From positions 1-32,182 of the IMG/VR virus record IMGVR_UViG_3300031228_000023: 32,182 nucleotides of DNA. One strand, given 5' to 3'. Below the pieces are notes generated by a model. The model had not been told where the DNA came from, did no database searches, and saw only the letters and a list, made by a program, of their open reading frames with translations. Positions 3,903-25,144 of the stretch are shown here, one piece after another (the stretch's first letter is position 1; each line of letters starts with the position of its first letter). The DNA is from a virus. Taxonomy: Duplodnaviria; Caudoviricetes. A program made the translations under genes and the position numbers.

Positions 3903-5033
3903 ATGTCCCGCGTCCCTCCGTCCTGGCCCACCGGCCGACCCGGCCCTTGCCGTATAGCGATCGTTGGCGAAGCCCCGGGCCAGGATGAGGTTTGGGCGGG
4001 CGCGCCCTTCGTCGGTATGTCCGGCCAGGAGCTGACCTCCCAACTCGCCCAGGCCGGCATCGACCGCTCCGAGTGTCTGCTGACGAACGTCCTGTCCGTC
4101 CGCCCCGCCGACAACAACCTCGCCTCGCTCTGCGTCCGCAAGGAGGACCTCCCCAGTGACTACCCCATTCATATTGGTCCTATGGTTACTCACGGCGGGA
4201 ACTTCTACCTACGGCCTGATCTGCTGGCTGAAGGTGCTAGGCTACGCGAGGAGCTTGCCGCAGCCCAACCAAACGTGGTTATCGCTCTTGGCGCTACTGC
4301 TTGCTGGGCTCTGCTTGGCGACACTGGCATCGGCAACCTGCGGGGCGTGGTCCATCGTTCTGTCACAAGCGTACCCTACAAGGTAGTCCCCACCTGGCAC
4401 CCGGCCGCGATCCTCCGCACCTGGCAGTGGCGGCCCATAGCCATCGCCGACCTGGCCAAAGCCAAGCGAGAGTCGGCCTACCCGGAGTTCCGCTATGACA
4501 ACTTCGAACTCTGGCTGGAGCCCGAGCTTCCCGACCTCCACGAATTTGAGAGGCTCCATATACCCCCGGGTTCTGTCGTGGCACCTGACGTCGAGACAGC
4601 CAATGGCGAGATTACCTGTATCGGCTTTGGTGTCGGCGAAACTGCCCGCCGAGGTTTGGTCATTCCTTTTAGGACGGACCCTGTCACCGTGGGAAAAGGC
4701 GATAGTCGACGTACTCTCTACACTGGCAACTACTGGCCGTCCTTCGCCCACGAACGCGCCGCTTGGCTCTGGGTCAAGCGCATCCTCGAAGACCGGAAGG
4801 ACCTTCAGTTAGTCTGGCAGAACGGATTGTATGATATCCAGTACCTAATCAAGCATGGCATCTTCGCAACCAATTCGACCCACGACTGTATGTTGATGCA
4901 CCACTCAATGTACCCGGAGATGGACAAGAGCCTCGGCTTCCTGGGCTCGATCTACCTCAACACCCAGAGCTGGAAACAGTTCGGCGGCAAGCGGGGCCAG
5001 AAGTTCGCCGACGACTTGAAGAAGGACGCCTAG
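3903..5033 (+). CDS. UDG-like domain fused to the N-terminal part of a DnaQ-like 3'-5' exonuclease (first subunit of a split PolA)
   Basis: Family-4-like UDG motifs IAIVGEAPG, LTNV, VIALGATA and PTWHPAAILR. Then ExoI (APDVET), ExoII (QNGLYDIQYL) and HDCMLMHH...SLGFLGSIY. No ExoIII before the stop. Confidence 0.85.
   Translation: MSRVPPSWPTGRPGPCRIAIVGEAPGQDEVWAGAPFVGMSGQELTSQLAQAGIDRSECLLTNVLSVRPADNNLASLCVRKEDLPSDYPIHIGPMVTHGGNFYLRPDLLAEGARLREELAAAQPNVVIALGATACWALLGDTGIGNLRGVVHRSVTSVPYKVVPTWHPAAILRTWQWRPIAIADLAKAKRESAYPEFRYDNFELWLEPELPDLHEFERLHIPPGSVVAPDVETANGEITCIGFGVGETARRGLVIPFRTDPVTVGKGDSRRTLYTGNYWPSFAHERAAWLWVKRILEDRKDLQLVWQNGLYDIQYLIKHGIFATNSTHDCMLMHHSMYPEMDKSLGFLGSIYLNTQSWKQFGGKRGQKFADDLKKDA
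4156..4386 (+). CDS. Candidate overprinted (+1 frame) 76-aa membrane protein inside the UDG-like gene
   Basis: AGGAGG (4141-4146) lies 9 nt before GTG 4156. Two hydrophobic stretches. ORF limits coincide with a T-ending codon patch of the host gene. Confidence 0.55.
   Translation: MTTPFILVLWLLTAGTSTYGLICWLKVLGYARSLPQPNQTWLSLLALLLAGLCLATLASATCGAWSIVLSQAYPTR
4495..4812 (+). CDS. Candidate overprinted (+1 frame) 105-aa protein inside the exonuclease part
   Basis: GGAG 7 nt before ATG 4495. The stop is formed by the rare host codon TTA. Host codons are T/A-ending-rich within the ORF. Confidence 0.4.
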   Translation: MTTSNSGWSPSFPTSTNLRGSIYPRVLSWHLTSRQPMARLPVSALVSAKLPAEVWSFLLGRTLSPWEKAIVDVLSTLATTGRPSPTNAPLGSGSSASSKTGRTFS

Positions 5034-5036
5034 CCC

Positions 5037-5246
5037 ATGACCGCCACCGACCGCACCAAGCCCGCCTGGGAACCCATCAGCCAAGCCCGGATGATCGCCG
5101 ATAACATCCACAAGGACCTCGCGGACGCTGACCGGGCGACCGAACCTTGGGCTCGTCTCCACCATGTCGAGGTCGCCCAGGATCGCATCAACGGATTGAA
5201 GGCTCGCCTTGACACAGCGGCGAAGGAACTCGGAGCCCGCCAATGA
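5037..5246 (+). CDS. Small hypothetical helical protein
   Basis: AAGGA upstream. 69 aa. ATGA overlap with the RNase H gene. Confidence 0.65.
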   Translation: MTATDRTKPAWEPISQARMIADNIHKDLADADRATEPWARLHHVEVAQDRINGLKARLDTAAKELGARQ

Positions 5247-5764
5247 GCGTAGCCAACATCATCTGTGACGCATCGGTCCTCCAGCCCGGCCGCGAAGCCT
5301 GGGGTTGGGCCTGTGCCATCATCACCGACCGAACCCGTCACTACACCTCCGGGCAGGGACGGGTCCCCGTCGCCTCCTCCAACGACGCCGAGTTCTTCGC
5401 CATCACCAACAGCCTTGACTTCGCCTTCCGCCGCGGCATGATCGCTCCCAACGAAGTCGTCCTGATCCAATCCGACAGCCTCCATGCCGCCGGTGTCTTC
5501 AACTATCACTTCCGTTCGCGCCACTATCGAGGCGCCCCGGTAGGTCGGACCTGCCCGACCGTTAGCCCGGCCCAAGCCCAAGCCATCGTCCACCTGACCG
5601 GCCTCCTGTCTCGCCACCCCTACCGTTCCATCTATGTCCGCCACGTCAAAGCCCACCTCGCCTTCGCCAACCGCGCCGCCCGGAACCACGTCCACGAACG
5701 GGTGGACGAGCTGGCCGGCATCGCCGCCCGCAAGGCCTATGGAGCCCTCGCCCATGTCCGCTAA
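5243..5764 (+). CDS. rnhA: Ribonuclease HI-like protein
   Basis: Catalytic D-E-D-D pattern: IICDAS, SNDAEFFAI, IQSDSL, HVKAH...HERVDELA. Confidence 0.85.
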   Translation: MSVANIICDASVLQPGREAWGWACAIITDRTRHYTSGQGRVPVASSNDAEFFAITNSLDFAFRRGMIAPNEVVLIQSDSLHAAGVFNYHFRSRHYRGAPVGRTCPTVSPAQAQAIVHLTGLLSRHPYRSIYVRHVKAHLAFANRAARNHVHERVDELAGIAARKAYGALAHVR

Positions 5765-6083
5765 CTCTCCCGACGACCGCGACCCCCTAACCGAGGCCAA
5801 GAACGCCATCTGCCAAAAGGTCGGCTACTCCATCGGCGGCGCGTTGGTGTCCATGCTCCGCGAACACTCCCCCTGCGCCTGTGTCTCCTGCCAATACCAA
5901 GCCATCGCCCACCTCTGCGACTGGACCGCCAATGGGGAAGACGTTCGGCACAGCTTGCCGGCGGTCCTTGCTCTCATCACTGCGTTGGAGTCCCTTCGCG
6001 ACGAACTGGGTGCGGTCCAGGCCTTCGGCGAAGCTCTGGCCGCAGCCGGGGTCAGCCCCAACACAGACTTCGGCACCGCCTAA
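5754..6083 (+). CDS. Hypothetical protein with a CxCxxC motif
   Basis: GGAG upstream of ATG 5754 (MSANSPDDRD). Contains PCACVSC. Ends 3 nt before the polymerase start. Confidence 0.65.
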   Translation: MSANSPDDRDPLTEAKNAICQKVGYSIGGALVSMLREHSPCACVSCQYQAIAHLCDWTANGEDVRHSLPAVLALITALESLRDELGAVQAFGEALAAAGVSPNTDFGTA

Positions 6084-6086
6084 CTG

Positions 6087-7805
6087 ATGGCCCGCATCCT
6101 CCATACCGCGAACCTCGACTCGTCCAGCCCACTCCTAGCCGACCCTAACACCCGACTTTGGATATACAACGGCTACGACGTGTGCGGCACCCGAGCCATC
6201 TTCGACGCCCTCCTGCCCGAGGTCGCCCGCGCCTCCACCTCCTACAACTTCGTCCGTGCCATGCAAGGTCCGGCCCTGGACATGATGCTTCGCGGCATTT
6301 GGGTCAACCCTCTCCAACGCAGCCGAGAGCGGGCGAGGCTCAACGCCGCCAGGGACCGCTGCCAAGCCCTGCTGGACGAACTGGCCCACGCGGTGTGGGG
6401 CCGAGGGTTGAATGCCAACTCCAGCAAGCAACTCCTAGCCTTCTTCTACATCGCGCTCGGAGCCCCGGTCCAGTACGCCCTCCGCAAGACCCCCGAGGGC
6501 AAGAAGAAAACCCCCTCGTGCGACCACAAAGCCCTAGAGAAGCTTGCTCAGTGGAAGAACAAGGGTCCCGCCATCAGCCCATGGGATCGCCATGTCACCT
6601 CCGTCCACCTCGCCAAACCCTTCGTCACCCTCATCACGAACATCCGCGAATACACCAAGAAACTCGGGGTGGTTAACAGTGGTATTTCAGCTGACGGACG
6701 GCTCCGTTGTAGCTATAACGTCGTCGGCACGGTTACGGGGCGATGGTCATCGAGTAGCAATGTATGGGGGTCCGGCACTAACCTCCAGAACATTACAGAG
6801 TCTATGCGACGCATGGCCTGCGCAGATGCTGGCTATAAGCTGGGGACACCCGACCTTGAGCAAGCGGAGTCCCGTTTGGTTGCGGGACTTACTTGGCTTG
6901 CCACAGGCGATGATACCTATTGGCGAGCTTGTGAGTCCGGTGACCTACATACAATCGTTTGTACCATGGCGTACCCGGAACATTTTGAGGAAGTGGGGGG
7001 TTGGGATCATAGCCTCGGTGCTTTCGTCGGAGACCTAGCCGCTTGCCGGGTCATCGCCGACCGTAAGTTCTACCGCCACCTGTCCATGCGGGACCTCGCG
7101 AAGCGGATTGGGCATGGGTCCAACTACTACGGCCCGCCCCTCGGCATCGCCGGAATGATCGGCATCGAGGTTGCCGTCGTGGAAGAGTTCCAGCGCCGGT
7201 ACTTCCGCGCCTTCCCGGCTATCCGCCAGTGGCACGCCGCCACCATCCGCCAACTCCAAACCACCTCCTGCCTGATCACCCCCTTGGGCCGCATCCGGTT
7301 CTTCTTCAAGCGCACCTCCGAAGACACCGTCCAGCGCGAAGCCATCGCCCACGTCCCCCAATCCACCATCGGGGAACTCCTGAACTGTATGCTCTACCGG
7401 GTGTGGGACTACGGGATGAAAGGCGGAAAGGTCGCCCACCGCCCCTGGACCGCCGCCTGCCAACTCCTCCTCCAGAACCACGACTCCATCCTATTCCAAT
7501 ACCCCGAGGCTCTCGAAGACACGGTACTCGCCAAGGTCCGCGAGCTGATGACCATGACCCTCCCGCTGACCCGTGTCGACCCCGACACCGGCCTCAGCGA
7601 AACCCGACACCTCGCCCTTCCCCTGGAGTTCAAGACCGGGTGGAATTGGGCCAAACAAGACAAGCGTAAGGACTTCTTCGATGACGGAAACCCCGACGGC
7701 CTCCGTGACTACGCCGGACCCGGAAGCGACGCCCGACGTCGATGCGACCCCGCTCGGCCCGACCCCACCCATTACCTCGGACTGCCCTCCGGGTTCGGGA
7801 AGTGA
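6087..7805 (+). CDS. polA: Family A DNA polymerase (polymerase domain preceded by the ExoIII helix)
   Basis: YNGYD (ExoIII), NANSSKQL, GTVTGRWSS, NLQNI, motif A DLEQAESR, motif B RDLAKRIGHGSNYYG, TPLGRIR, PQSTIG, motif C LLQNHDS. Confidence 0.95.
   Translation: MARILHTANLDSSSPLLADPNTRLWIYNGYDVCGTRAIFDALLPEVARASTSYNFVRAMQGPALDMMLRGIWVNPLQRSRERARLNAARDRCQALLDELAHAVWGRGLNANSSKQLLAFFYIALGAPVQYALRKTPEGKKKTPSCDHKALEKLAQWKNKGPAISPWDRHVTSVHLAKPFVTLITNIREYTKKLGVVNSGISADGRLRCSYNVVGTVTGRWSSSSNVWGSGTNLQNITESMRRMACADAGYKLGTPDLEQAESRLVAGLTWLATGDDTYWRACESGDLHTIVCTMAYPEHFEEVGGWDHSLGAFVGDLAACRVIADRKFYRHLSMRDLAKRIGHGSNYYGPPLGIAGMIGIEVAVVEEFQRRYFRAFPAIRQWHAATIRQLQTTSCLITPLGRIRFFFKRTSEDTVQREAIAHVPQSTIGELLNCMLYRVWDYGMKGGKVAHRPWTAACQLLLQNHDSILFQYPEALEDTVLAKVRELMTMTLPLTRVDPDTGLSETRHLALPLEFKTGWNWAKQDKRKDFFDDGNPDGLRDYAGPGSDARRRCDPARPDPTHYLGLPSGFGK
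6679..7038 (+). CDS. Candidate overprinted (+1 frame) ~119-aa protein inside polA
   Basis: The +1 frame is open from 6544 to 7038. GTG 6679 follows GGGGTGG; ATG 6592 is an alternative start. The T-ending codon patch ends at the TAG formed by the rare host codon CTA. Confidence 0.45.
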   Translation: MVFQLTDGSVVAITSSARLRGDGHRVAMYGGPALTSRTLQSLCDAWPAQMLAISWGHPTLSKRSPVWLRDLLGLPQAMIPIGELVSPVTYIQSFVPWRTRNILRKWGVGIIASVLSSET

Positions 7806-9024
7806 CGGCCAGGGCGGCTTCATCGAGAGGCACATCGCCTGGATGGAAGGCACCCCGACCCCCGACATCTTCAAGCTGTGGTCCGCGATCTTCGCGGTCG
7901 GGTCCGCCGTCCGTCGCCGGGTCTGGACCGAGCTGCTGGGGGGCCGTCCCATCTACCCAAACCTCTTCGTCTGGCTGGTCGGCCCGCCGGGCACCGGGAA
8001 GACTGAAGCTATCGTCCCCATGTCCCTGCACCTCCGGAAGTCCAAGACCGCCCGCCTCGCCCCGAATGACGTGTCCAAGCAATCCCTCCTCGACGCCCTC
8101 AAGGGTTGCGGCGACGTTCTGATCCTCGGCCCGAACGCGGTCCCCGTCGAATACCACTACATGGCGATCGTGGTCCGCGAACTCTCCAACTTCATGTCCG
8201 CGTATGACGGCGCTCTAACCGGCATCCTCACCGACCTCTTCGACAACCCGCCGGAGAACGACGAACTCAAGCGTACCACCAAGTCCGCCGGCCCGATCAT
8301 CCGCCCCTCCGTGTCCATGATCGCCGGCACCGCCACCAAGAACCTCGGCTCGACAGTCAAGGAGACCTGGGGCCAGGGCTTCATGTCCCGGATGATCCTG
8401 GTGTATTCCGCCGAACAACAGATGGTCCAGTTCTTCAACGAAGACTTGGCGGAGCGGCAAGAGTGGGATGATGGACTGGTCCGCCAACTGTCGCGGATTG
8501 GCTCCCTCAAGGGCCGGATGCGCTGGACCCCCGAAGCGGTGGCCGCCTTCCAAGCCTGGCAGGCCAAGGGCTATGCGCCGGTCCCGACCCACGCCAAGCT
8601 CCTCGAATACACCGCCCGGCGCTTCCTCCACGTCTCGAAGCTGGCGATGATCAGCGCCCTCAGCGACGAGAGGGTCCGCATCGAAGAGGGCGACTTCCTC
8701 CGGGGCCTGCGGTGGCTAGAGCACGCCGAGTCCGCCATGCCGGAAATCTTCAAAGAAATGGTAGTCCACGAGGACGGGGAAATTCTCCGGGAGCTGCACA
8801 TGCACCTCTGGGCCATGTGGTCCGCTCAACCGAAGGACGCCAAGCGCCCGTTCCCCTCGGTGGTGCTCTGGTCCTTCCTCAAGGACAAAGTCGCCGCCCG
8901 CCTCATCCCCGGCCTAATCGAGTCGGGGCTGAACTCGGGCCTCTGGGCGCGGATGGCAGGAACCTCCGGCTCGGACGCCAAGTACAAACCCCTCCCGAAC
9001 TTCGGCCAAATCAAATCGGACTAA
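7681..9024 (+). CDS. DUF3987-like P-loop NTPase, putative replicative helicase
   Basis: TAAGGA before ATG 7681. IYPNLFVWLVGPPGTGKT Walker A, IVVRELS Walker B-like, GFMSRMILVY. Overlaps the polA 3' end by 125 nt. Confidence 0.75.
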   Translation: MTETPTASVTTPDPEATPDVDATPLGPTPPITSDCPPGSGSDGQGGFIERHIAWMEGTPTPDIFKLWSAIFAVGSAVRRRVWTELLGGRPIYPNLFVWLVGPPGTGKTEAIVPMSLHLRKSKTARLAPNDVSKQSLLDALKGCGDVLILGPNAVPVEYHYMAIVVRELSNFMSAYDGALTGILTDLFDNPPENDELKRTTKSAGPIIRPSVSMIAGTATKNLGSTVKETWGQGFMSRMILVYSAEQQMVQFFNEDLAERQEWDDGLVRQLSRIGSLKGRMRWTPEAVAAFQAWQAKGYAPVPTHAKLLEYTARRFLHVSKLAMISALSDERVRIEEGDFLRGLRWLEHAESAMPEIFKEMVVHEDGEILRELHMHLWAMWSAQPKDAKRPFPSVVLWSFLKDKVAARLIPGLIESGLNSGLWARMAGTSGSDAKYKPLPNFGQIKSD

Positions 9025-9164: not shown

Positions 9165-9515
9165 CTACTCCCGCCACGGAGTAAGCTGTTGCCAGAAGGT
9201 GCGGGGCGCGAGGGCCTTGGCGACCTCCGCCTCCCGCGCGTTACACTTCTCCACGATGGAGATGGTGTCCCGGGTCCGTCCGTTGGCTAGGTCCAACTGG
9301 CCCGTCTGTCGAATACCAAACTCCTGCCAGTCGACCCTCGGACCCTCCGGGTCAGGCATGGGCGCGCTAGGGACGCCCGCCCTCCACGCCTCGGGAACGT
9401 TCTCGGCGCAGTTGAACGCAGCGAGGGTCGTCCTTGGCGCTGTCGTACATGCACATGCGAGCAACAGCAAGAGCGCCGCGCTGCTCATCCTCAATGTCGT
9501 GTAGGTCTTTGACAT
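9165..9515 (-). CDS. o-spanin (Rz1-like outer-membrane lipoprotein)
   Basis: MSKTYTTLRMSSAALLLLLACAC is a lipoprotein signal with a lipobox Cys. Pro-rich mature part. Starts inside the i-spanin gene in the +1 frame. Confidence 0.8.
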   Translation of the reverse strand: MSKTYTTLRMSSAALLLLLACACTTAPRTTLAAFNCAENVPEAWRAGVPSAPMPDPEGPRVDWQEFGIRQTGQLDLANGRTRDTISIVEKCNAREAEVAKALAPRTFWQQLTPWRE

Positions 9516-9753
9516 CTGCGTCCACCTTCTTTCGTGTATCCAGCCCGTCCTGGGCGTTGCCGATGATAACCCCCGCCGCATCCTCGGCCGCAGCGGCTTG
9601 GCCCTTAGCTTCCTCCGCCTCCACCGAGGCGCGCCTCGCCCGTTCCTCCGCCTGGCCCGGCCGTATCACCACGAACCACACGGCGAACGCGAACAGGGCC
9701 ACAAGCAGCCCCGCCACGATCGCCCTGAACATCAGCTCCTGCGTCCACTTCAT
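9367..9753 (-). CDS. i-spanin (Rz-like inner-membrane protein)
   Basis: N-terminal TM (AIVAGLLVALFAFAVWFVVI), Ala/Glu-rich coiled coil, C-terminal Cys residues. ATGA-coupled to the endolysin. Confidence 0.8.
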   Translation of the reverse strand: MKWTQELMFRAIVAGLLVALFAFAVWFVVIRPGQAEERARRASVEAEEAKGQAAAAEDAAGVIIGNAQDGLDTRKKVDADVKDLHDIEDEQRGALAVARMCMYDSAKDDPRCVQLRRERSRGVEGGRP

Positions 9754-10796: not shown

Positions 10797-13700
10797 CTAA
10801 TCCACCGCGAAGGCCCACTCTGCGGCGGCCTCCCCGCTTCTGTCCCGACCCACCGCGAAGTCCAGCTGCGTCACCTCGCTCCGTTCCGCCCGCGCCTTGG
10901 CGCTCCGGAGGACACTCGACGTGTCGATCCCCATTGCCATCGCCCGGGTGAAGATTGTCGTCGCCGCCTGGTTATCGCCGGCTTCCCAAGCCTCCGCCAT
11001 CTGGCGACCCATCTCGGTCACCGTCTCGCGCTTGCGGTTCTGGTCCTTCCGCACGTCCTCATAGGCGGCATAGCTCTTATCCAAATCCACCGGATTGAAC
11101 CCCATCGCGTACAACAGGCTGGACCCCATACTAACATTGTCCACCACCCGATAGCCGCTGTTGAGGCTCCGAATAGCGTTGTCCTCCCCGGCACTCATGG
11201 CTCGATAGACCGTCCGTGGGGCCAGGGCTCGGGCCATCCCATCGCGTATCCCCGCATCCTCCCAGGGGCTGACCCCCGTGGCCTTATACGCGGTGATGGC
11301 GTCGCCGGCCGTCCGCCCGAACGCCCGCATCCGGTCGTACACCGCGAACCCAAACAGCATCGAGGCGTCCCGCTCCGGGTCACTCCCCGGGCTACTCGCC
11401 TGTGCGGCTAGACTCAACCCCAGCGTGCCCGGCAACCCGTACATCACCCCATCCGCAACCCACTCATTATCCGGGAACACATCATTGTACAAAGTGTCCA
11501 TGAAGGACTTATCGGTGGCCCATTTGGAGAACCCATCCGCCATCGGTTTCAGGAGGGGGAGGGCCGCCCCTCCGCCCAGGGCCGCAGTGGCTGCCGTCTG
11601 CCACAGCAGAGGAGCCAACGTGTCCCTCCCTCCGCCCGCATACTTCGCCATATTCGCCATGTAGTGGAAGGACCACGTCTTGAACGTGCCCATGAGGCTC
11701 CCGACCGGCGTGGTGAAGATGGTCGGCCGGTCCACCGTGGAGTAGTTGAACGCCGTCTTGGCCAGGAATTCGCGGGTGAACCGCTGCATCCGGTAGGCGT
11801 CCTTGATCCCCAGCGCCTTGGTGAGTTCGTAGGCGGTGCTCACCCCTACCAAGCGGTTGAACTCCTCACTCTTGGCCAAGAGGATTTCGTTCGCCGCTCC
11901 CGCCCACCGGACGAAGCTTCGCCCATCCTGAAACGCGCCCCGAAGGTCCTTGACAATCGTCCCCGTGGAGCCGAAGTGTTCCTCCGCATATCGCGGCGAG
12001 ATCAGCTTCTCCTGGATGGCGAACTGGAGGAGGTCCCGGAACTCCGGGTCGAGGTCCTTCTCATTCCGCATCACGTTCTTGAGGGAGTTTGAGAACAGCT
12101 TGACGTCGGAGAGAACCCCCACGCTGTCCACAATCCGGCCGCCCCCGTCCGTCAGCGGCACGGTGATGTAGTTACTCGTGTCCTTCCCAGCGGTTCGTAG
12201 GAGGAAGCTGGCCTCCGGGAACATCGTCTGGAACATCGTCACCGCATTGAGGACGTAGTGGCTCAGGTTCCCGAACCCGAATTGGAATGCGTTGAGGGTC
12301 TGCTGCGCCGTGCGAACGATCGTGCTCGCACTGTCCTTCCCGAGGATACCCCCAAGCGCCTTGTCCAGCGCAGTGTTCTGGAACCGGGCAAAGTCGCCCT
12401 CGTCCCCCTGAAGGATCGCGAGGCGCTTCTCCACCGCGGTCGCCGCCAGAGGGTCCTCGTTCCGCAACCGCGTCAGCACGTCCCACAGCTTCTCCTGGAG
12501 AACGACATTAGTCTTCAGCCGTTCCCGGGCCTTGAGGTTCCGCTCCACCAACCCGGCGAACCGTTCGGCGTCCAACGGCTGTTTCATCAAGTCATATCCA
12601 AGCAGCTCTCCGCGTTCCTTGAGGAACCCGGGCTTCCTGACCGCCGCCTGATACCTCGTAACCATCCCCGCGTCTTCGAAGATGTCCGTGCCGACCCCAC
12701 CCAGCTTCAAGGGTCGGCCGGTCTTCTTCGCCTCCCTCGCGATCAGTGCAACGGCATTGTCCCGCGCCTCACGGGCGGTCCCTCCGGCAACGATCCCGGC
12801 AAGCTCGCCGGTTTGCTCATCGTCAAGGAGCGCATAAAAGCCTCCGTCACGCTGGCGAGATAGCCCATAGTGACCGGCTCGTGCGTTGAAGTCTTCGATG
12901 AGTTGCGCGGCATTGCTCGACCCCACTTGCGCCTTGAGTTTCTCGAACGCGGCCACATTGGCGCGGCTGATATCCTCAAGGCCGCGCAGAACCTCGAAGG
13001 CTTTGGGGGTGACATGCCCGTCCAGGGCCACCTGTTGGAGCTTCTCGAACGGCAGGGCCATTTCCAAGATGTCTTGCACGCTGGCCCAATCCTCAGGCGC
13101 GAGGGTCTTGTAGAACTCCCGGAGCCCGCCCCCGCTCGGCTCGTTCAGGGTGACCACCTGACGCCACAGCGGCGCGTTCCGGTTGGCGATGGCAGCACGG
13201 GCGCCGTCCATGATGGCGGAAACCCGACCCTCTTCGAAGTCCGTCATGGACTTGATGAGGTTCACCGCATAGTTAGCCTTGTTGTTTCGGCTGGCTAGGT
13301 TGGCGGTCGGGGCGAGGTACGCCTCCGCCAGCTCGCTGACGTCCCGGCCCAAGGCACGGAGCGCGGAGGCAGTGGGTCGGACTCCTTTGGGGAGGAACTG
13401 GACCGCCTCAAACTCCCGCTCGAACATGTTCGCGGTGTCGAAGAACTCCTCCCCGATGTTCGGGGCCGGACCCTTCTGCGGCCAATAGGCGCTCCGGTTG
13501 ATAGTCAGCTCGCGGAACGCGGCGGCCCGAGGGTCGATCAGGTCCGGCTGATGGGTCTTAAACGCGAACCATTCGTCCCCTGCCTTGGGCGCGCCAATGG
13601 TCCCGTTGACCTTCTTCGCGAACCCCCAGAGCCCATCCTGCTCCCGCCACATATGCCACCCATCGCCCACCTGGCGAACGGGGTTGCCGCTGCGGACTGT

Positions 13701-14861
13701 GCCCGGCCGCCGCCCGGTAAACGTATTCTCGATCGCAGCGGCGGCGCGGTCGCCCTGGCCCGCATTCGCGCCGGTCCCTTCCTGTACCTTGACCGCGCGG
13801 AAGTCCTGCCCCATCAGGGGGAGTTTGTCCCGATCCAACCCCAGCCGCCCCATGAAGTCGTCCAGCTCCCGAGTGGTCGGGAACCCCACATGGTATTCCG
13901 GGCTATTTGGCGCGAGCGTCCGGGTAACCGTAAGCTGGCCCGGCTTGACCCCCGGGGTCATGATGGCATTGATCGCCTCCCCGTAGTTCCGGCCGCTCCG
14001 GGGCGTCACGTCCCCCTCCAGCGCGCCGAACACCTTTCCCTTCTCCCAGGTGAACCGGCCGCCCTCTTCCCGGCCCAGACGCACCGACCCATCCGGCATA
14101 TACGCGGGGTCGATCCCCGCCAAGCTGGCCCGCTTGAGTTGGTCCCGTTGCCAGGTAATGGACTGAAGCTGTTCGGGCGTATAGCGAACCTCGCCATAGC
14201 CGCCCATATCCGCCGCTTCCTCCAACGCATTCACCCGGACCACTAGGGGTTGGCTCGGGTGCGCGCCCGGCACGTAGTCAGAGATACGCGGACCCCGACC
14301 AAGGACACCCTTCAGCGCGCCCGCCCCAGCGCCGAGCACCCCCCCGAACGCCACGTTGAGAGCGGCCTCACCGGCCAGTTCCCCAAGGCTCTCGTCCCTC
14401 TCCTTCCCGAAGATCGCGCCAGGCACAGGCGAGGCGGCGAGTGCGAGCCTTCCCGTCTCCAACATCGCGGCCTCGGTCGCCCACTTGGTCGCCATCGACC
14501 TAATCGGCGCGTCCGCCAGCCCGAAGAACTTCGGCGCGGCGTTGACCACGGACATAGCCTTCGGGCTCATGGACAGCGCCTTAGCGCCCGCCCCATAGCC
14601 GACCCCCATCCCGAGCACCTCGCTGACGAACCCACTGACGGGATTGGCGGCCCGGAACGCTTGGGTTTCCTGGCTGGTCTCCAACCCAAACATCTCCGGG
14701 AAAGCCTCCAACGCGGATTGGGTAAACCCTTGTATTTTCCCATAGGCGTTCGTGGCGACCCCATTCCCACCGGGTCGGCCCAACCCCATGCTCGGCCGCC
14801 CCAACGAAGGCCCACCCAGCCCCGTTTCCGGGACGATTTCCGGCCTACCGAGCCCCGCCAT
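10797..14861 (-). CDS. Large internal virion/DNA ejection protein (~1,354 aa)
   Basis: AAGGAGG before ATG 14861. Very long Ala/Gly-rich helical protein. Last of three increasing-size ORFs after the tail genes, as in podovirus ejection protein sets. Confidence 0.7.
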   Translation of the reverse strand: MAGLGRPEIVPETGLGGPSLGRPSMGLGRPGGNGVATNAYGKIQGFTQSALEAFPEMFGLETSQETQAFRAANPVSGFVSEVLGMGVGYGAGAKALSMSPKAMSVVNAAPKFFGLADAPIRSMATKWATEAAMLETGRLALAASPVPGAIFGKERDESLGELAGEAALNVAFGGVLGAGAGALKGVLGRGPRISDYVPGAHPSQPLVVRVNALEEAADMGGYGEVRYTPEQLQSITWQRDQLKRASLAGIDPAYMPDGSVRLGREEGGRFTWEKGKVFGALEGDVTPRSGRNYGEAINAIMTPGVKPGQLTVTRTLAPNSPEYHVGFPTTRELDDFMGRLGLDRDKLPLMGQDFRAVKVQEGTGANAGQGDRAAAAIENTFTGRRPGTVRSGNPVRQVGDGWHMWREQDGLWGFAKKVNGTIGAPKAGDEWFAFKTHQPDLIDPRAAAFRELTINRSAYWPQKGPAPNIGEEFFDTANMFEREFEAVQFLPKGVRPTASALRALGRDVSELAEAYLAPTANLASRNNKANYAVNLIKSMTDFEEGRVSAIMDGARAAIANRNAPLWRQVVTLNEPSGGGLREFYKTLAPEDWASVQDILEMALPFEKLQQVALDGHVTPKAFEVLRGLEDISRANVAAFEKLKAQVGSSNAAQLIEDFNARAGHYGLSRQRDGGFYALLDDEQTGELAGIVAGGTAREARDNAVALIAREAKKTGRPLKLGGVGTDIFEDAGMVTRYQAAVRKPGFLKERGELLGYDLMKQPLDAERFAGLVERNLKARERLKTNVVLQEKLWDVLTRLRNEDPLAATAVEKRLAILQGDEGDFARFQNTALDKALGGILGKDSASTIVRTAQQTLNAFQFGFGNLSHYVLNAVTMFQTMFPEASFLLRTAGKDTSNYITVPLTDGGGRIVDSVGVLSDVKLFSNSLKNVMRNEKDLDPEFRDLLQFAIQEKLISPRYAEEHFGSTGTIVKDLRGAFQDGRSFVRWAGAANEILLAKSEEFNRLVGVSTAYELTKALGIKDAYRMQRFTREFLAKTAFNYSTVDRPTIFTTPVGSLMGTFKTWSFHYMANMAKYAGGGRDTLAPLLWQTAATAALGGGAALPLLKPMADGFSKWATDKSFMDTLYNDVFPDNEWVADGVMYGLPGTLGLSLAAQASSPGSDPERDASMLFGFAVYDRMRAFGRTAGDAITAYKATGVSPWEDAGIRDGMARALAPRTVYRAMSAGEDNAIRSLNSGYRVVDNVSMGSSLLYAMGFNPVDLDKSYAAYEDVRKDQNRKRETVTEMGRQMAEAWEAGDNQAATTIFTRAMAMGIDTSSVLRSAKARAERSEVTQLDFAVGRDRSGEAAAEWAFAVD

Positions 14862-16665
14862 TGGTGCCTCCTTGGCCAGCCGCACTGGCCGGCTCCTTCA
14901 AGTGCCGAAGGAACAACTGTCCCACCGGAAGTCCCTGTGCCGCACTGGTCTTGGCCCACGCCAGAGCGGAGCCAGGGTCGGCCCGCTCCCCCTCGTTTAG
15001 GAGTCGGCCCAGCGCCGCTGCGGCCAGCTCGGGGTCCTGCTTCGCCAACATGGCGATCTCGTTCCTGATCTTCTCGTCCGGGAGCGTCGAGTAGGTCCCC
15101 GCGTAAGCCATCTCCCGACCCAGCGCGTTGATGGCGGCTGTCTTGTTGTTCGCCGCGATATACAGCGCACCCTGAGCCGCGTTCAGACCCACCGGGTCCT
15201 TGTTCGCTGCAGCGACCTTCGGGTCCACTCCGATTGCGGACAGCATCCCGCTCACCGTGCGGATTTGGTCGTCCGTCGCGGCCTTGGCGGAGCGCTCTTC
15301 CTGGAACAAGAACCGCTTGAGGTCGAGGTCCCGCTGTCCCAGGATTTGCTGGCTGGTAATGTCCACGTTCTGCTCGATACTCCGCATCGCCGCCTGGGCC
15401 CTGGCATACTTCGCCTGGTCCACGTCGCGGAGATACTGATTGTCGAGACCAAGGTTCGTGACCGCCTCCCTTGTGGCGACTTCCCACGCGGATTGTTTGT
15501 TGGTGAAGTCGGTGGTGAGCCGGTCCCGCTGGTCCTGCCACTTCCGATCCGCGTTGGCGTTCCGCGTCCCTCGGTTCGTGGACTCAAGGTCGATGCCCAG
15601 CCGGGCGAGGCTAAGGTCGAACAGCCGGGTAGCCTCGGCGGCGGCCTTCTCGTCCTGGCGGGCCTCGCGGTCCCACGCGGTCGCCGCGCCGCTGGCCCCT
15701 GCACCGATGGCCGCCAGCATAGCGCCGACCCCATCCCGCACATCAGCCCGCGCAGCCCCTGCCCCAATGCCCGCGAGTACCTCCTTGAGCCGCCCCTTCT
15801 GCGCCTTCTCTTTGTCATACCCCGGCGGGGCGAACTCCCGAAGCATCTCCAAGGTCTTCTGAACGTCCACCTCCTCCGCCGCCGGCCTGTCAGGCGCGAA
15901 CCCCATCTGGGGTGCGTCCGGTAGGTCCAGATGGCTCGGCCGGCTGGGGTCCGGGATCATCCCAGACATATCCGGCATACCCGGCAAGTTAGGCATGGTG
16001 AAGACATCGGGCTTGGCCGACCATGCCACATGGACATGGTCCCCTTCGTTGATGACTTCCTCGAACGCCCCGGTAGCCTTCAGCAGGTCCGCCGCCTGCT
16101 TCATCGACATACCCTTCGGCGGGATGAAGTCCCGGGCTTGGTCCGCCAGATGGAGGCTATTCTTCGCCCCGCCCACCCGCCTGTTGTCCTCAGGCGTCCG
16201 CTTCCCGGAGGTGTACGTCGCCGCCCCGCCCAAGAGGCTGTCGATCAGCACTTCCGGTTGGTTCCAGGGAGTCTGGGCCGGAATGGCCGTGGGATCAGCC
16301 GCACCCGCACGGGGCACGTTGAACTCCCACCCCTGCATCAGCGAGGCGGCGTCGGTCGGAGCCGCCGGTGCAGGCGCACCCTTCGGCCCAAATTTGTCGA
16401 ACAGCCCCTGCGCCACGAACCGGGGACCGAACACGTTCGGCGCGGCCATAGCCATCTGTTGGGTTGGGGCCATGAACTGCGGCAAGAGGTTCTGCGCGGC
16501 TCCTGCCGCACCGGCAACCACCGGGCTCGTGGCCACGGTGCCGACAGCCTGACTCGCCCCCGGCCAAGTGGTCGGGTCAGCCAGCTTCGGCCGAACCTGC
16601 CACCAGGGGGTCGTCTCCCACCACGGCGGAGCGGGCGAGGTCGGGTTGTTTTGCGGACCGGCCAT
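14845..16665 (-). CDS. Internal virion protein with an M15-like Zn peptidase domain
   Basis: YTSGKRTPEDNRRVGGAKNSLHLADQARDF...GDHVHVAW matches the peptidase M15 H-x6-D...HxH signature. The remainder is helical. Confidence 0.7.
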   Translation of the reverse strand: MAGPQNNPTSPAPPWWETTPWWQVRPKLADPTTWPGASQAVGTVATSPVVAGAAGAAQNLLPQFMAPTQQMAMAAPNVFGPRFVAQGLFDKFGPKGAPAPAAPTDAASLMQGWEFNVPRAGAADPTAIPAQTPWNQPEVLIDSLLGGAATYTSGKRTPEDNRRVGGAKNSLHLADQARDFIPPKGMSMKQAADLLKATGAFEEVINEGDHVHVAWSAKPDVFTMPNLPGMPDMSGMIPDPSRPSHLDLPDAPQMGFAPDRPAAEEVDVQKTLEMLREFAPPGYDKEKAQKGRLKEVLAGIGAGAARADVRDGVGAMLAAIGAGASGAATAWDREARQDEKAAAEATRLFDLSLARLGIDLESTNRGTRNANADRKWQDQRDRLTTDFTNKQSAWEVATREAVTNLGLDNQYLRDVDQAKYARAQAAMRSIEQNVDITSQQILGQRDLDLKRFLFQEERSAKAATDDQIRTVSGMLSAIGVDPKVAAANKDPVGLNAAQGALYIAANNKTAAINALGREMAYAGTYSTLPDEKIRNEIAMLAKQDPELAAAALGRLLNEGERADPGSALAWAKTSAAQGLPVGQLFLRHLKEPASAAGQGGTNGGAR

Positions 16666-24364: not shown

Positions 24365-25144
24365 CTAGGCCTCCGTCTTGGTTTCGAAGGTCGCGGTGAG
24401 TCGAACCGACGCAGAGGTTTCGATGGTCAAGGCTTCGTTGGCCGCGGTCTTGAAGTAAGGCCGTTCCCGGAACTCGAAGCTTCCACCACCGCCAGCAGTC
24501 CCGAAGAACTTCGGCCCGTAGATGACGGTCGCCCCGCTCTTGACCGTTACGTCGCAGGCACCGTCGACCTGGAACTCCCAGGCGTGGACGCGGCAAGCCT
24601 CGCCCGGCACTGCCGCCACGACTTCGCGGGAGCCGGTGGCTGTGCTGTCGATGTGGATCGTCGCGTCCATATCGGTCGCTGCCAAGGCGGGCGTTTTCGG
24701 GAGTTCTGGAACCGCTTCAGCAAGGCGGTCATATATCCCACCAAGAACACCGCGAATAGAAGCCGACCCCGAGCCCTCATAAGAAGTGTCGTCCAACGCT
24801 CCCAAACGGGTATTGGTGGTGTTCTGGTTGGCTGCTGTAGCGTCACCGCCACCTCCGCTTCCACCTCCGAGCTGGCCCGCGATGATCGAGTCAACCTGGG
24901 CGATGCCAAAGAGGATCGAGTCCCCTTCGGAGATGGTATCCGCATGCAGCCATGTAATGGTAGCTTGCCCGTTTCCGTTAAGCACGATGGTAAAGTCGGT
25001 GTCGGCTTTGTAGTAATCCGCGCCCGCCACAGCCACATGCTGTCCCGAGCGGGGCGTCCGAAGCTTGTCGAACACTCCCGGTAGAACCAAAGTACCAGAC
25101 GTTACCAGATCAGCTTCGAGGACAACAGGCACTGCGCGAAACAT
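24365..25144 (-). CDS. Hypothetical virion-associated protein
   Basis: GGAG RBS. 259 aa, two beta domains joined by a Gly linker. First gene after the capsid gene. Confidence 0.65.
   Translation of the reverse strand: MFRAVPVVLEADLVTSGTLVLPGVFDKLRTPRSGQHVAVAGADYYKADTDFTIVLNGNGQATITWLHADTISEGDSILFGIAQVDSIIAGQLGGGSGGGGDATAANQNTTNTRLGALDDTSYEGSGSASIRGVLGGIYDRLAEAVPELPKTPALAATDMDATIHIDSTATGSREVVAAVPGEACRVHAWEFQVDGACDVTVKSGATVIYGPKFFGTAGGGGSFEFRERPYFKTAANEALTIETSASVRLTATFETKTEA

Follow-up and report, generated by a model that had tools for sequence, protein, structure and literature searches.

Genes 4.1, 19.2 and 19.3 of phage T7 are overlapping genes. Inside a phage DNA polymerase gene, the closest described case is that of mycobacteriophage Patience, in which a 372-bp open reading frame (ORF) is embedded in gene 91, encoding DNA polymerase III alpha, and its product was detected by mass spectrometry with seven peptides (PMC4324244). 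Here, we analyse the virus record IMGVR_UViG_3300031228_000023 over 32,182 nucleotides of caudoviral DNA (the window), in which the two genes of a split family A DNA polymerase (PolA) contain three candidate genes in the +1 frame, termed ORF1, ORF2, and ORF3. The embedded Patience ORF shares with ORF1–3 a same-strand, out-of-frame position wholly inside a phage DNA polymerase gene, a strong ribosome-binding site, and the lack of database relatives. It spans ~120 codons, is kept in one relative at 30% identity, is lost in another, and has no known function. While Patience offers one ORF in a family C polymerase with a detected protein, the window has a divided family A enzyme with three candidate frames, for which the support is statistical and family-wide.

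Embedded genes are termed rare in Caudoviricetes, annotators are urged to treat them with great caution, and lambda Rz1 within Rz is an example (PMC8785237); phiX174 E within D is named as a de novo overlapping protein (PMC8227390). Both resemble ORF1–3 as small shifted-frame genes with their own start inside another gene; in contrast, the products of lambda Rz1 and phiX174 E have known lysis functions and conserved sequence features, whereas ORF1–3 sit within genes for replication, their ends shift, and they match no recognised family. For young de novo overprinted viral genes, atypical codon usage, rapid evolution, and weak purifying or positive selection are reported, and such genes may be strain-specific or without function (PMC3494269); that description rests on 12 experimentally validated viral genes, while ORF1–3 are predicted frames.

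The window is a 32-kb podophage record. Among named phages, its closest relative is Caulobacter phage Kuura, which it also matches in portal, capsid, and terminase; Kuura is a podovirus infecting Caulobacter sp. B15 (PMC9959647). The N-terminal half of the split polymerase is a uracil-DNA glycosylase (UDG)-exonuclease of 376 aa at 3903..5033 on the plus strand (Pfam UDG, E 2.6e-20; 61% to Kuura_029), which also matches the PHROG 17 DNA polymerase profile over 557-788. The polymerase domain follows on the same strand at 6087..7805 (572 aa; Pfam DNA_pol_A, E 1e-26; 66% to the Kuura DNA polymerase). Together, the two genes are predicted to encode family-4 UDG, 3'-5' exonuclease, and PolA domains in the order that defines UDG-PolA phage polymerases. 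Such enzymes are described for SPO1, SP-10, SP-15, and N4-like cluster 17, beside T7-like PolAs split between exonuclease and polymerase (PMC10201439, PMC13697223); these phages share with the window the domain set and the split at the exonuclease/polymerase boundary. In the window, however, three small genes (5037-6083, the RNase H-like one at 5243-5764) separate the two halves. Longer forms of ~900 aa, such as P0068, occur among the PolA homologues. Kuura has two genes between its polymerase halves, which are unmatched to the three of the window.

The sequence-only reading had proposed genes nested in the replicase and knew of no equivalent in phage PolA. A literature search, with most subscription journals outside its reach, found no report of nested frames in phage PolA or UDG-PolA, and the passages of PMC13697223 and PMC10201439 at hand do not mention them. 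For phage polymerases in general the claim of novelty has to be narrowed, as an expressed out-of-frame ORF is known in a phage DnaE (PMC4324244). The additions made here are a set of three frames within a single split PolA and a map of hotspots across the family.

Both polymerase genes contain sharply bounded patches of altered codon usage, as had been noticed from the sequence. A two-state hidden Markov model (HMM) over the 12 early genes of the window places them at 4167-4361 and 4545-4724 in the UDG-exonuclease gene and at 6672-7022 in the PolA gene; a weaker fourth patch rich in third-position T (T3) lies at 5127-5246 between the polymerase halves. At two-fold pyrimidine codons, T occupies 25/49 third positions in the patches vs 53/487 outside (51% vs 11%; p 1e-10), and the highest T3 count over 60 codons, 23, exceeds the maximum of 19 reached in 2000 shuffles. 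The earlier description of the patches as T-rich was incomplete in that A rises too: four-fold codons carry T at 50/152 vs 112/1420 and A at 25/152 vs 78/1420 positions, while two-fold purine codons are the same inside and outside (8/20 vs 128/341). Thus, the patches represent a lost preference for third-position C (C3), with T and A both up, rather than a pure gain of T.

Each patch is covered by an open +1 frame on the plus strand. ORF1 (4156-4386) starts with GTG and encodes 76 aa; ORF2 (4495-4812) starts with ATG and encodes 105 aa over the ExoI motif; ORF3 (6679-7038) starts with GTG and encodes 119 aa over polymerase motif A. The patch within ORF2 begins 50 nucleotides (nt) downstream of its ATG and ends 88 nt upstream of its stop. 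All three frames are open as first reported, and each is preceded by a Shine-Dalgarno (SD) site with a duplex energy of −11.4, −6.1, and −7.3 kcal/mol, respectively, computed against an assumed anti-SD sequence; the 12 called early-gene starts range from −1.7 to −11.8 kcal/mol. Scanning the two shifted frames of 32 called genes in the window yields 28 candidate starts with an SD of at most −6 and at least 45 codons, and ORF1–3 have the top three upward steps in A/T third-position share among them (+0.42, +0.26, +0.24), followed by two other frames and the predicted o-spanin (+0.15). An SD start at the patch onset combined with an open frame gives p 0.0015, 0.007, and 0.004 by criteria chosen post hoc, after seeing the data.

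The +1 frame is stop-free in all three patches, with p 0.0003 for within-patch shuffles, 0.002 for pooled patch codons, and 0.014 for background codons; individually, within-patch shuffles give p 0.045, 0.25, and 0.04 for ORF1, ORF2, and ORF3. The +2 frame shows no such depletion (3, 4, and 13 stops vs 3.3, 4.7, and 8.6 expected). Two further claims about the frames survive only in part. The stops of ORF1–3 do derive from GTA, TTA, and CTA, used 9, 2, and 16 times in the early arm, but the argument from their rarity is weak, with xTA codons supplying 22/62 of all +1 stops there. Likewise, the patches were said to encode hydrophobic +1 residues, which is true of ORF1, where the maximum 19-residue hydropathy over the patch is 2.26, but not of ORF2 and ORF3 (1.23 each).

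To place the frames in a wider context, relatives were collected from loci that include the best 80 of 157 and the best 80 of 325 matches. Near-duplicates were removed, as were genes shorter than 750 nt or containing N or internal stops, which left, with the window counted, 121 UDG-exonuclease, 129 PolA, 104 helicase, and 64 Sak4 genes; apart from Kuura, the best family matches are less than 50% identical. Test regions were set from the patches of the window, which was then excluded, and expectations come from synonymous shuffles within each region. At the place of ORF1 (UDG codons 89-153), 47/120 relatives have an open +1 frame, against 23.9 expected (z 7.3), and at that of ORF2 (UDG 215-274) 45/120 do, against 28.2 (z 6.1); z and p values of all family tests overstate certainty, as the relatives share ancestry, which has to be set against nesting. 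The two halves of ORF3 behave alike (PolA 196-255, 53/128 vs 38.5; PolA 256-312, 56/126 vs 40.9). The excess is retained in sets thinned to below 55% identity, with 32/77 vs 15.2 and 30/77 vs 17.9 for the two UDG regions and 25/63 vs 16.8 and 30/61 vs 17.2 for the two PolA regions. Even so, frames at the nested places are open in only 38-44% of relatives. PolA 325-385 also has an excess (50/124 vs 36.1), while none is found in UDG 20-80, UDG 290-350, PolA 80-140, PolA 445-505, or four Sak4 regions.

Relatives with open regions are richer in A/T at codons from which no +1 stop can arise (p 0.002, 0.004, 6e-6, and 3e-4), and the ends of the frames coincide with changes in codon usage across the family. 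In UDG and PolA genes, upward A/T steps are found where +1 starts with an SD of at most −7 lie (n 201 vs 3877, p 2e-4); frames from these starts are longer, with a median of 47 codons against 29. Downward steps mark the stops of frames that span at least 70 codons (n 312 vs 2126, p 1.5e-10). In helicase and Sak4 genes, the +1 frame shows neither the start step nor the stop step (p 0.33 and 0.43). Counting the window, 41/129 PolA and 25/121 UDG genes contain candidate frames, compared with 8/104 for helicase and 5/64 for Sak4. A strict HMM on stop-neutral codons had too little power, detecting patches in only 3/87 PolA, 0/74 UDG, 1/75 helicase, and 0/36 Sak4 genes, and was replaced by tercile and region tests. 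T/C shifts sorted by second base, the signature of an avoidance of Pro, did not separate open from broken windows.

ORF1 is the best-supported candidate and ORF2 the weakest. The SD site of ORF1 (4139..4146, plus strand) has an AAGGAGG core spelled by the host codons for K-E-D and lies inside an insertion of ~28 residues relative to T. maritima UDG (alignment to 1l9g); at the start, the A/T third-position share rises from 0.06 to 0.48. Among 22 close homologues, which are known as protein sequences only, 19 retain KE[DE]LP at the SD site. The start-site residue itself varies between S, R, N, H, D, G, and K, yet ATG or GTG could be formed with the next codon in 21/22 homologues, and this column is the sole one of 116 variable columns to reach at least 90% ATG/GTG compatibility. 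Kuura keeps both the SD, with identical energy, and the GTG, which is made via the rare Ser codon AGT, and 182 codons can be read from there.

The ORF1 product has two long hydrophobic helices, 24% Leu, and no Asp or Glu, and a structure model from the single sequence shows a helical hairpin at low confidence (pLDDT 68, pTM 0.37). We predict that ORF1 encodes an inner-membrane protein with two helices, produced early in infection. Its best match in the protein atlas, at 0.89, is a hypothetical protein. We regard ORF1 as very probably translated and selected. If it is functional, a role at the level of the envelope, e.g., superinfection exclusion or counter-defence, may be guessed at, and only tentatively. 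An Rz1-type o-spanin, a holin, and a phiX174 E-type lysis gene were considered and rejected, given the absence of a Pfam or PHROG match, the location in the replication arm, and the separate predicted spanin pair at 9165-9753. A record search that returned ORF1 unchanged (run X3, 0 differences in 227 nt) is uninformative on conservation, as two other pieces from this run also show no differences (0/293 and 0/238) and 25/87 pieces are at least 99% alike.

For ORF3, translation and selection are probable, and for ORF2 the balance leans gently the same way. DNA-level comparison of the frames of the window is confined to Kuura and one short contig. The latter, a 173-nt piece from a relative (X1 record 3, depth 2.4), differs at 14/31 third positions in ORF3 and yet keeps 8/31 T3 vs 11/31; it adds no +1 stop, by a hand count from the 17 differences listed out of 31.

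Elsewhere in the family, relatives share candidate nested frames. A sister clade of eight phages (L002, L006, L007, L008, L089, L090, L101, and L010) has a common +1 frame over PolA codons ~349-465 (L002 numbering) with the motif KL[WL]xYL. This frame, which the window lacks, contains no stop in 7/8 phages vs 1.4-2.9 expected in each. In 8/8, a rare GTA or ATA codon at one site preserves the Tyr of the motif, while three phages without the patch have GTC, ATT, or ATC there; xTA accounts for 3-11 of ~60 Ile/Val codons in these genes. Shared T/A columns number 7 vs 3.7 in region B (p 0.04) and 5 vs 3.6 in region A (p 0.27). In a second pair, L078:3032-3244 and L079:5761-5973, a strongly hydrophobic +1 frame of 71 aa has the same start and stop, with PolA 75% identical and third positions near saturation. 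The +1 identity exceeds that of shuffled sequences in L004/L005 (72% vs 41%) and L081/L082 (58% vs 40%).

Two side observations concern single relatives or groups of them. L010:3576-3746 is a 57-aa +1 frame with an SD of −10.3 and one clear transmembrane (TM)-like stretch; its start coincides with an abrupt increase of T3 in PolA. In the near-identical L095, L096, L098, and L099, a candidate frame over PolA codons 211-330 has 0/~115 synonymous differences vs 22-24/~380 outside, a pattern that fits constraint or recent exchange alike.

Taken together, we consider it reasonably likely that ORF1–3 are young, fast-evolving overprinted genes whose accessory proteins are made from ribosome-binding sites of their own. 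The family-wide stop avoidance, the strong-SD starts at patch onsets, the drops at the stops of long frames, and the kept start of ORF1 speak for nested +1 genes as the best explanation. Internal initiation on the early mRNA of the polymerase would yield accessory proteins of 76, 105, and 119 residues. As position 3 of the host codon is position 2 of the +1 codon, a gene with C at every third position would read as Pro/Ser/Thr-rich junk in the +1 frame; if a usable +1 product is selected for and +1 stops are selected against, C3 may be eroded only from start to stop, leaving a patch, because the eroded base sits mid-codon in +1. Conserved catalytic cores with few indels would offer stable ground for the recurrent birth of such frames, whose ends shift and whose sequences are weakly selected.

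Several results weigh against this account. Host-synonymous divergence, which the nested-gene proposal would have reduced, is the same in shared frames and outside (0.38 vs 0.38; 19 pairs of relatives, p 0.8) and in L085/L087 is higher inside the frame (91/167 vs 84/295). Conservation of the +1 starts and stops, likewise anticipated, does not exceed background over 61 pairs: exact starts are kept in 34/59 vs 224/466 for background (p 0.17), and the figures for end stops are 34/91 and 447/1229 (p 0.9). The +1 peptide is more similar than a control region in 14/18 scored pairs (p 0.08); between the window and Kuura, its similarity is no better than that of the control (0.29 vs 0.28, 0.32 vs 0.26, 0.26 vs 0.30). 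Host substitutions in the frames show no preference for +1-silent positions, and clustering of +1 hydrophobicity is weak (mean z 0.36 and −0.05). Although the frames are open in excess at all three places in relatives, Kuura lacks the ORF2 ATG, and at the position of ORF3 it has neither a start nor an open frame, with a stop inside; Kuura is also without a strong patch 3. In the window, no frame is unusually long by itself, as the proposed codon-permutation check of ORF length shows (longest-frame test p 0.35 and 0.10). Total +1 stops per gene across the family are barely below expectation (observed/expected 0.96-0.97). The controls are not clean: helicase 140-200 is in excess as well (17/103 vs 8.7), and a +2 start test in helicase and Sak4 genes gave p 0.017. 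TM-like stretches occur in 4/48 open frames at the place of ORF1 vs 3/73 broken ones. Searches with the ORF1–3 products found no homologue or family, with no matches in Pfam or PHROG; for ORF3, no homologue emerged among seven candidates and none in the protein atlas. Of 87 family candidate frames, 61 were submitted to PHROGs, with 0/61 matched. Rfam gave no match, and promoter-like and terminator-like sites are at or below chance level. The evidence for selection on the second protein is mixed, a pattern like that of young overprinted viral genes and also like translation without a useful peptide. Of the original proposal of accessory genes in the replicase, the open frames, SD starts, and family stop avoidance stand, while synonymous constraint and conserved ends fail.

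That second pattern leads to a different explanation, in which the +1 frames are translated but their peptides are irrelevant, and internal initiation and +1 ribosome traffic modulate polymerase mRNA output or stability. Selection would then act only on the start, the open frame, and translatable codons, which accommodates the stop avoidance and SD starts together with the unreduced synonymous divergence, shifting ends, and unconserved peptides; the authors of the Patience report likewise doubted a function of their expressed embedded ORFs (PMC4324244). However, it leaves unexplained the rare codons that preserve KL[WL]xYL in the sister clade, the raised +1 identities of L004/L005 and L081/L082, and the shared hydrophobic frames of L078/L079, and it offers no reason for 200-350 nt of altered codons. 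We consider it unlikely. An explanation without any +1 translation, in which the patches are recombined DNA from lower-GC relatives or reflect relaxed codon selection in the cores and the open frames are chance in a GC-rich gene, seems more doubtful still. Open +1 stretches of at least 55 codons are indeed common (18 in the 12 early genes), the conserved cores that hold the patches are the parts most open to homologous recombination, and the T/C shift by codon class parallels the trend between genomes. But the open-frame excess survives within-region shuffles that retain the patch codons, the +2 frame is not stop-depleted in the patches, and the closest protein neighbours are the same ones inside and outside them. 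A DNA search, with two records matched, gave no lower-GC phage; sister phages have patches at the same place despite largely turned-over third positions, and the short contig piece is still T-rich in ORF3 (8 vs 11 of 31) with 14/31 third positions changed. A one-off import explains the patch evidence poorly, and for the family the mosaic reading is largely refuted.

Programmed frameshifting out of the polymerase frame, with SD-like sites stimulating the shift, would instead produce shortened polymerases with new tails. At ORF1, CCC is followed by the rare AGT (6/156 Ser codons) just past the SD, an arrangement that resembles +1 shift sites. Against this, the 9-nt spacing from SD to GTG fits initiation, the varied residues at the site (S, R, N, H, D, G), all compatible with ATG or GTG, point to a start codon, and a shift there would halve the UDG domain, making this route very improbable. 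Insertion of a homing endonuclease or intein was rejected, as the host proteins align across the patches without insertion and no endonuclease domain was matched. Overprinted accessory genes thus remain our preferred reading of ORF1–3.

The window contains a further same-strand overlap that had been put forward as an internal control. On the minus strand, a predicted o-spanin (9165..9515) lies in the +1 frame (frame offset 1) of a predicted i-spanin (9367-9753). The control bears out the comparison: T3 rises in the i-spanin from 6/78 before to 12/49 within the +1 overlap, where the codons GCT CTT GCT GTT GCT are present as quoted. The spanin identity is predicted from the position beside a GH19-like lysin, an N-terminal TM segment, and a lipobox-like motif; the pair has no Pfam spanin match.

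Other frames deserve mention as separate observations. Inside the late gene 24365-25144, a 101-aa +1 frame on the minus strand (24547-24852) with an SD of −10.8, an A/T rise from 0.29 to 0.47, and a hydrophobic stretch is a possible fourth nested gene, without a match in Pfam. In the large virion gene 10797-14885, a +1 frame of 56-78 aa at 12743-12979 on the minus strand (ATG at 12913, SD −7.4) accompanies a local T3 rise. Helicase homology to Kuura begins at 7813, where there is no standard start codon (window 7573-7843); the nearest upstream ATG, at 7684 (SD −5.8), would make the helicase overlap the last 40 codons of PolA in the +1 frame. In the DUF3987 helicase of relatives, the excess at codons 140-200 (e.g., L053:1826-2344) suggests that nesting may reach beyond the polymerase.

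For the family as a whole, we see an even chance that the polymerase cores of UDG-exonuclease/PolA podophages are standing nurseries, in which one-fifth to one-third of members carry unannotated +1 genes that are repeatedly born and lost at the same hotspots and supply small, fast-turnover proteins for membranes and host interaction, produced together with the replisome. On this reading the window would hold three such genes together, and Kuura, available in culture, retains the start of ORF1. Because embedded genes are treated as rare (PMC8785237), annotation would, if such a layer exists across the family, systematically miss real phage proteins. It would also caution that local codon-bias patches in phage marker genes, commonly taken for recombination, can be second genes. 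If true, a family-wide layer inside the polymerase would let recurrent de novo gene birth be studied in a tractable prokaryotic setting, and the start site of ORF1 could be tested in culture with Kuura on its Caulobacter host.

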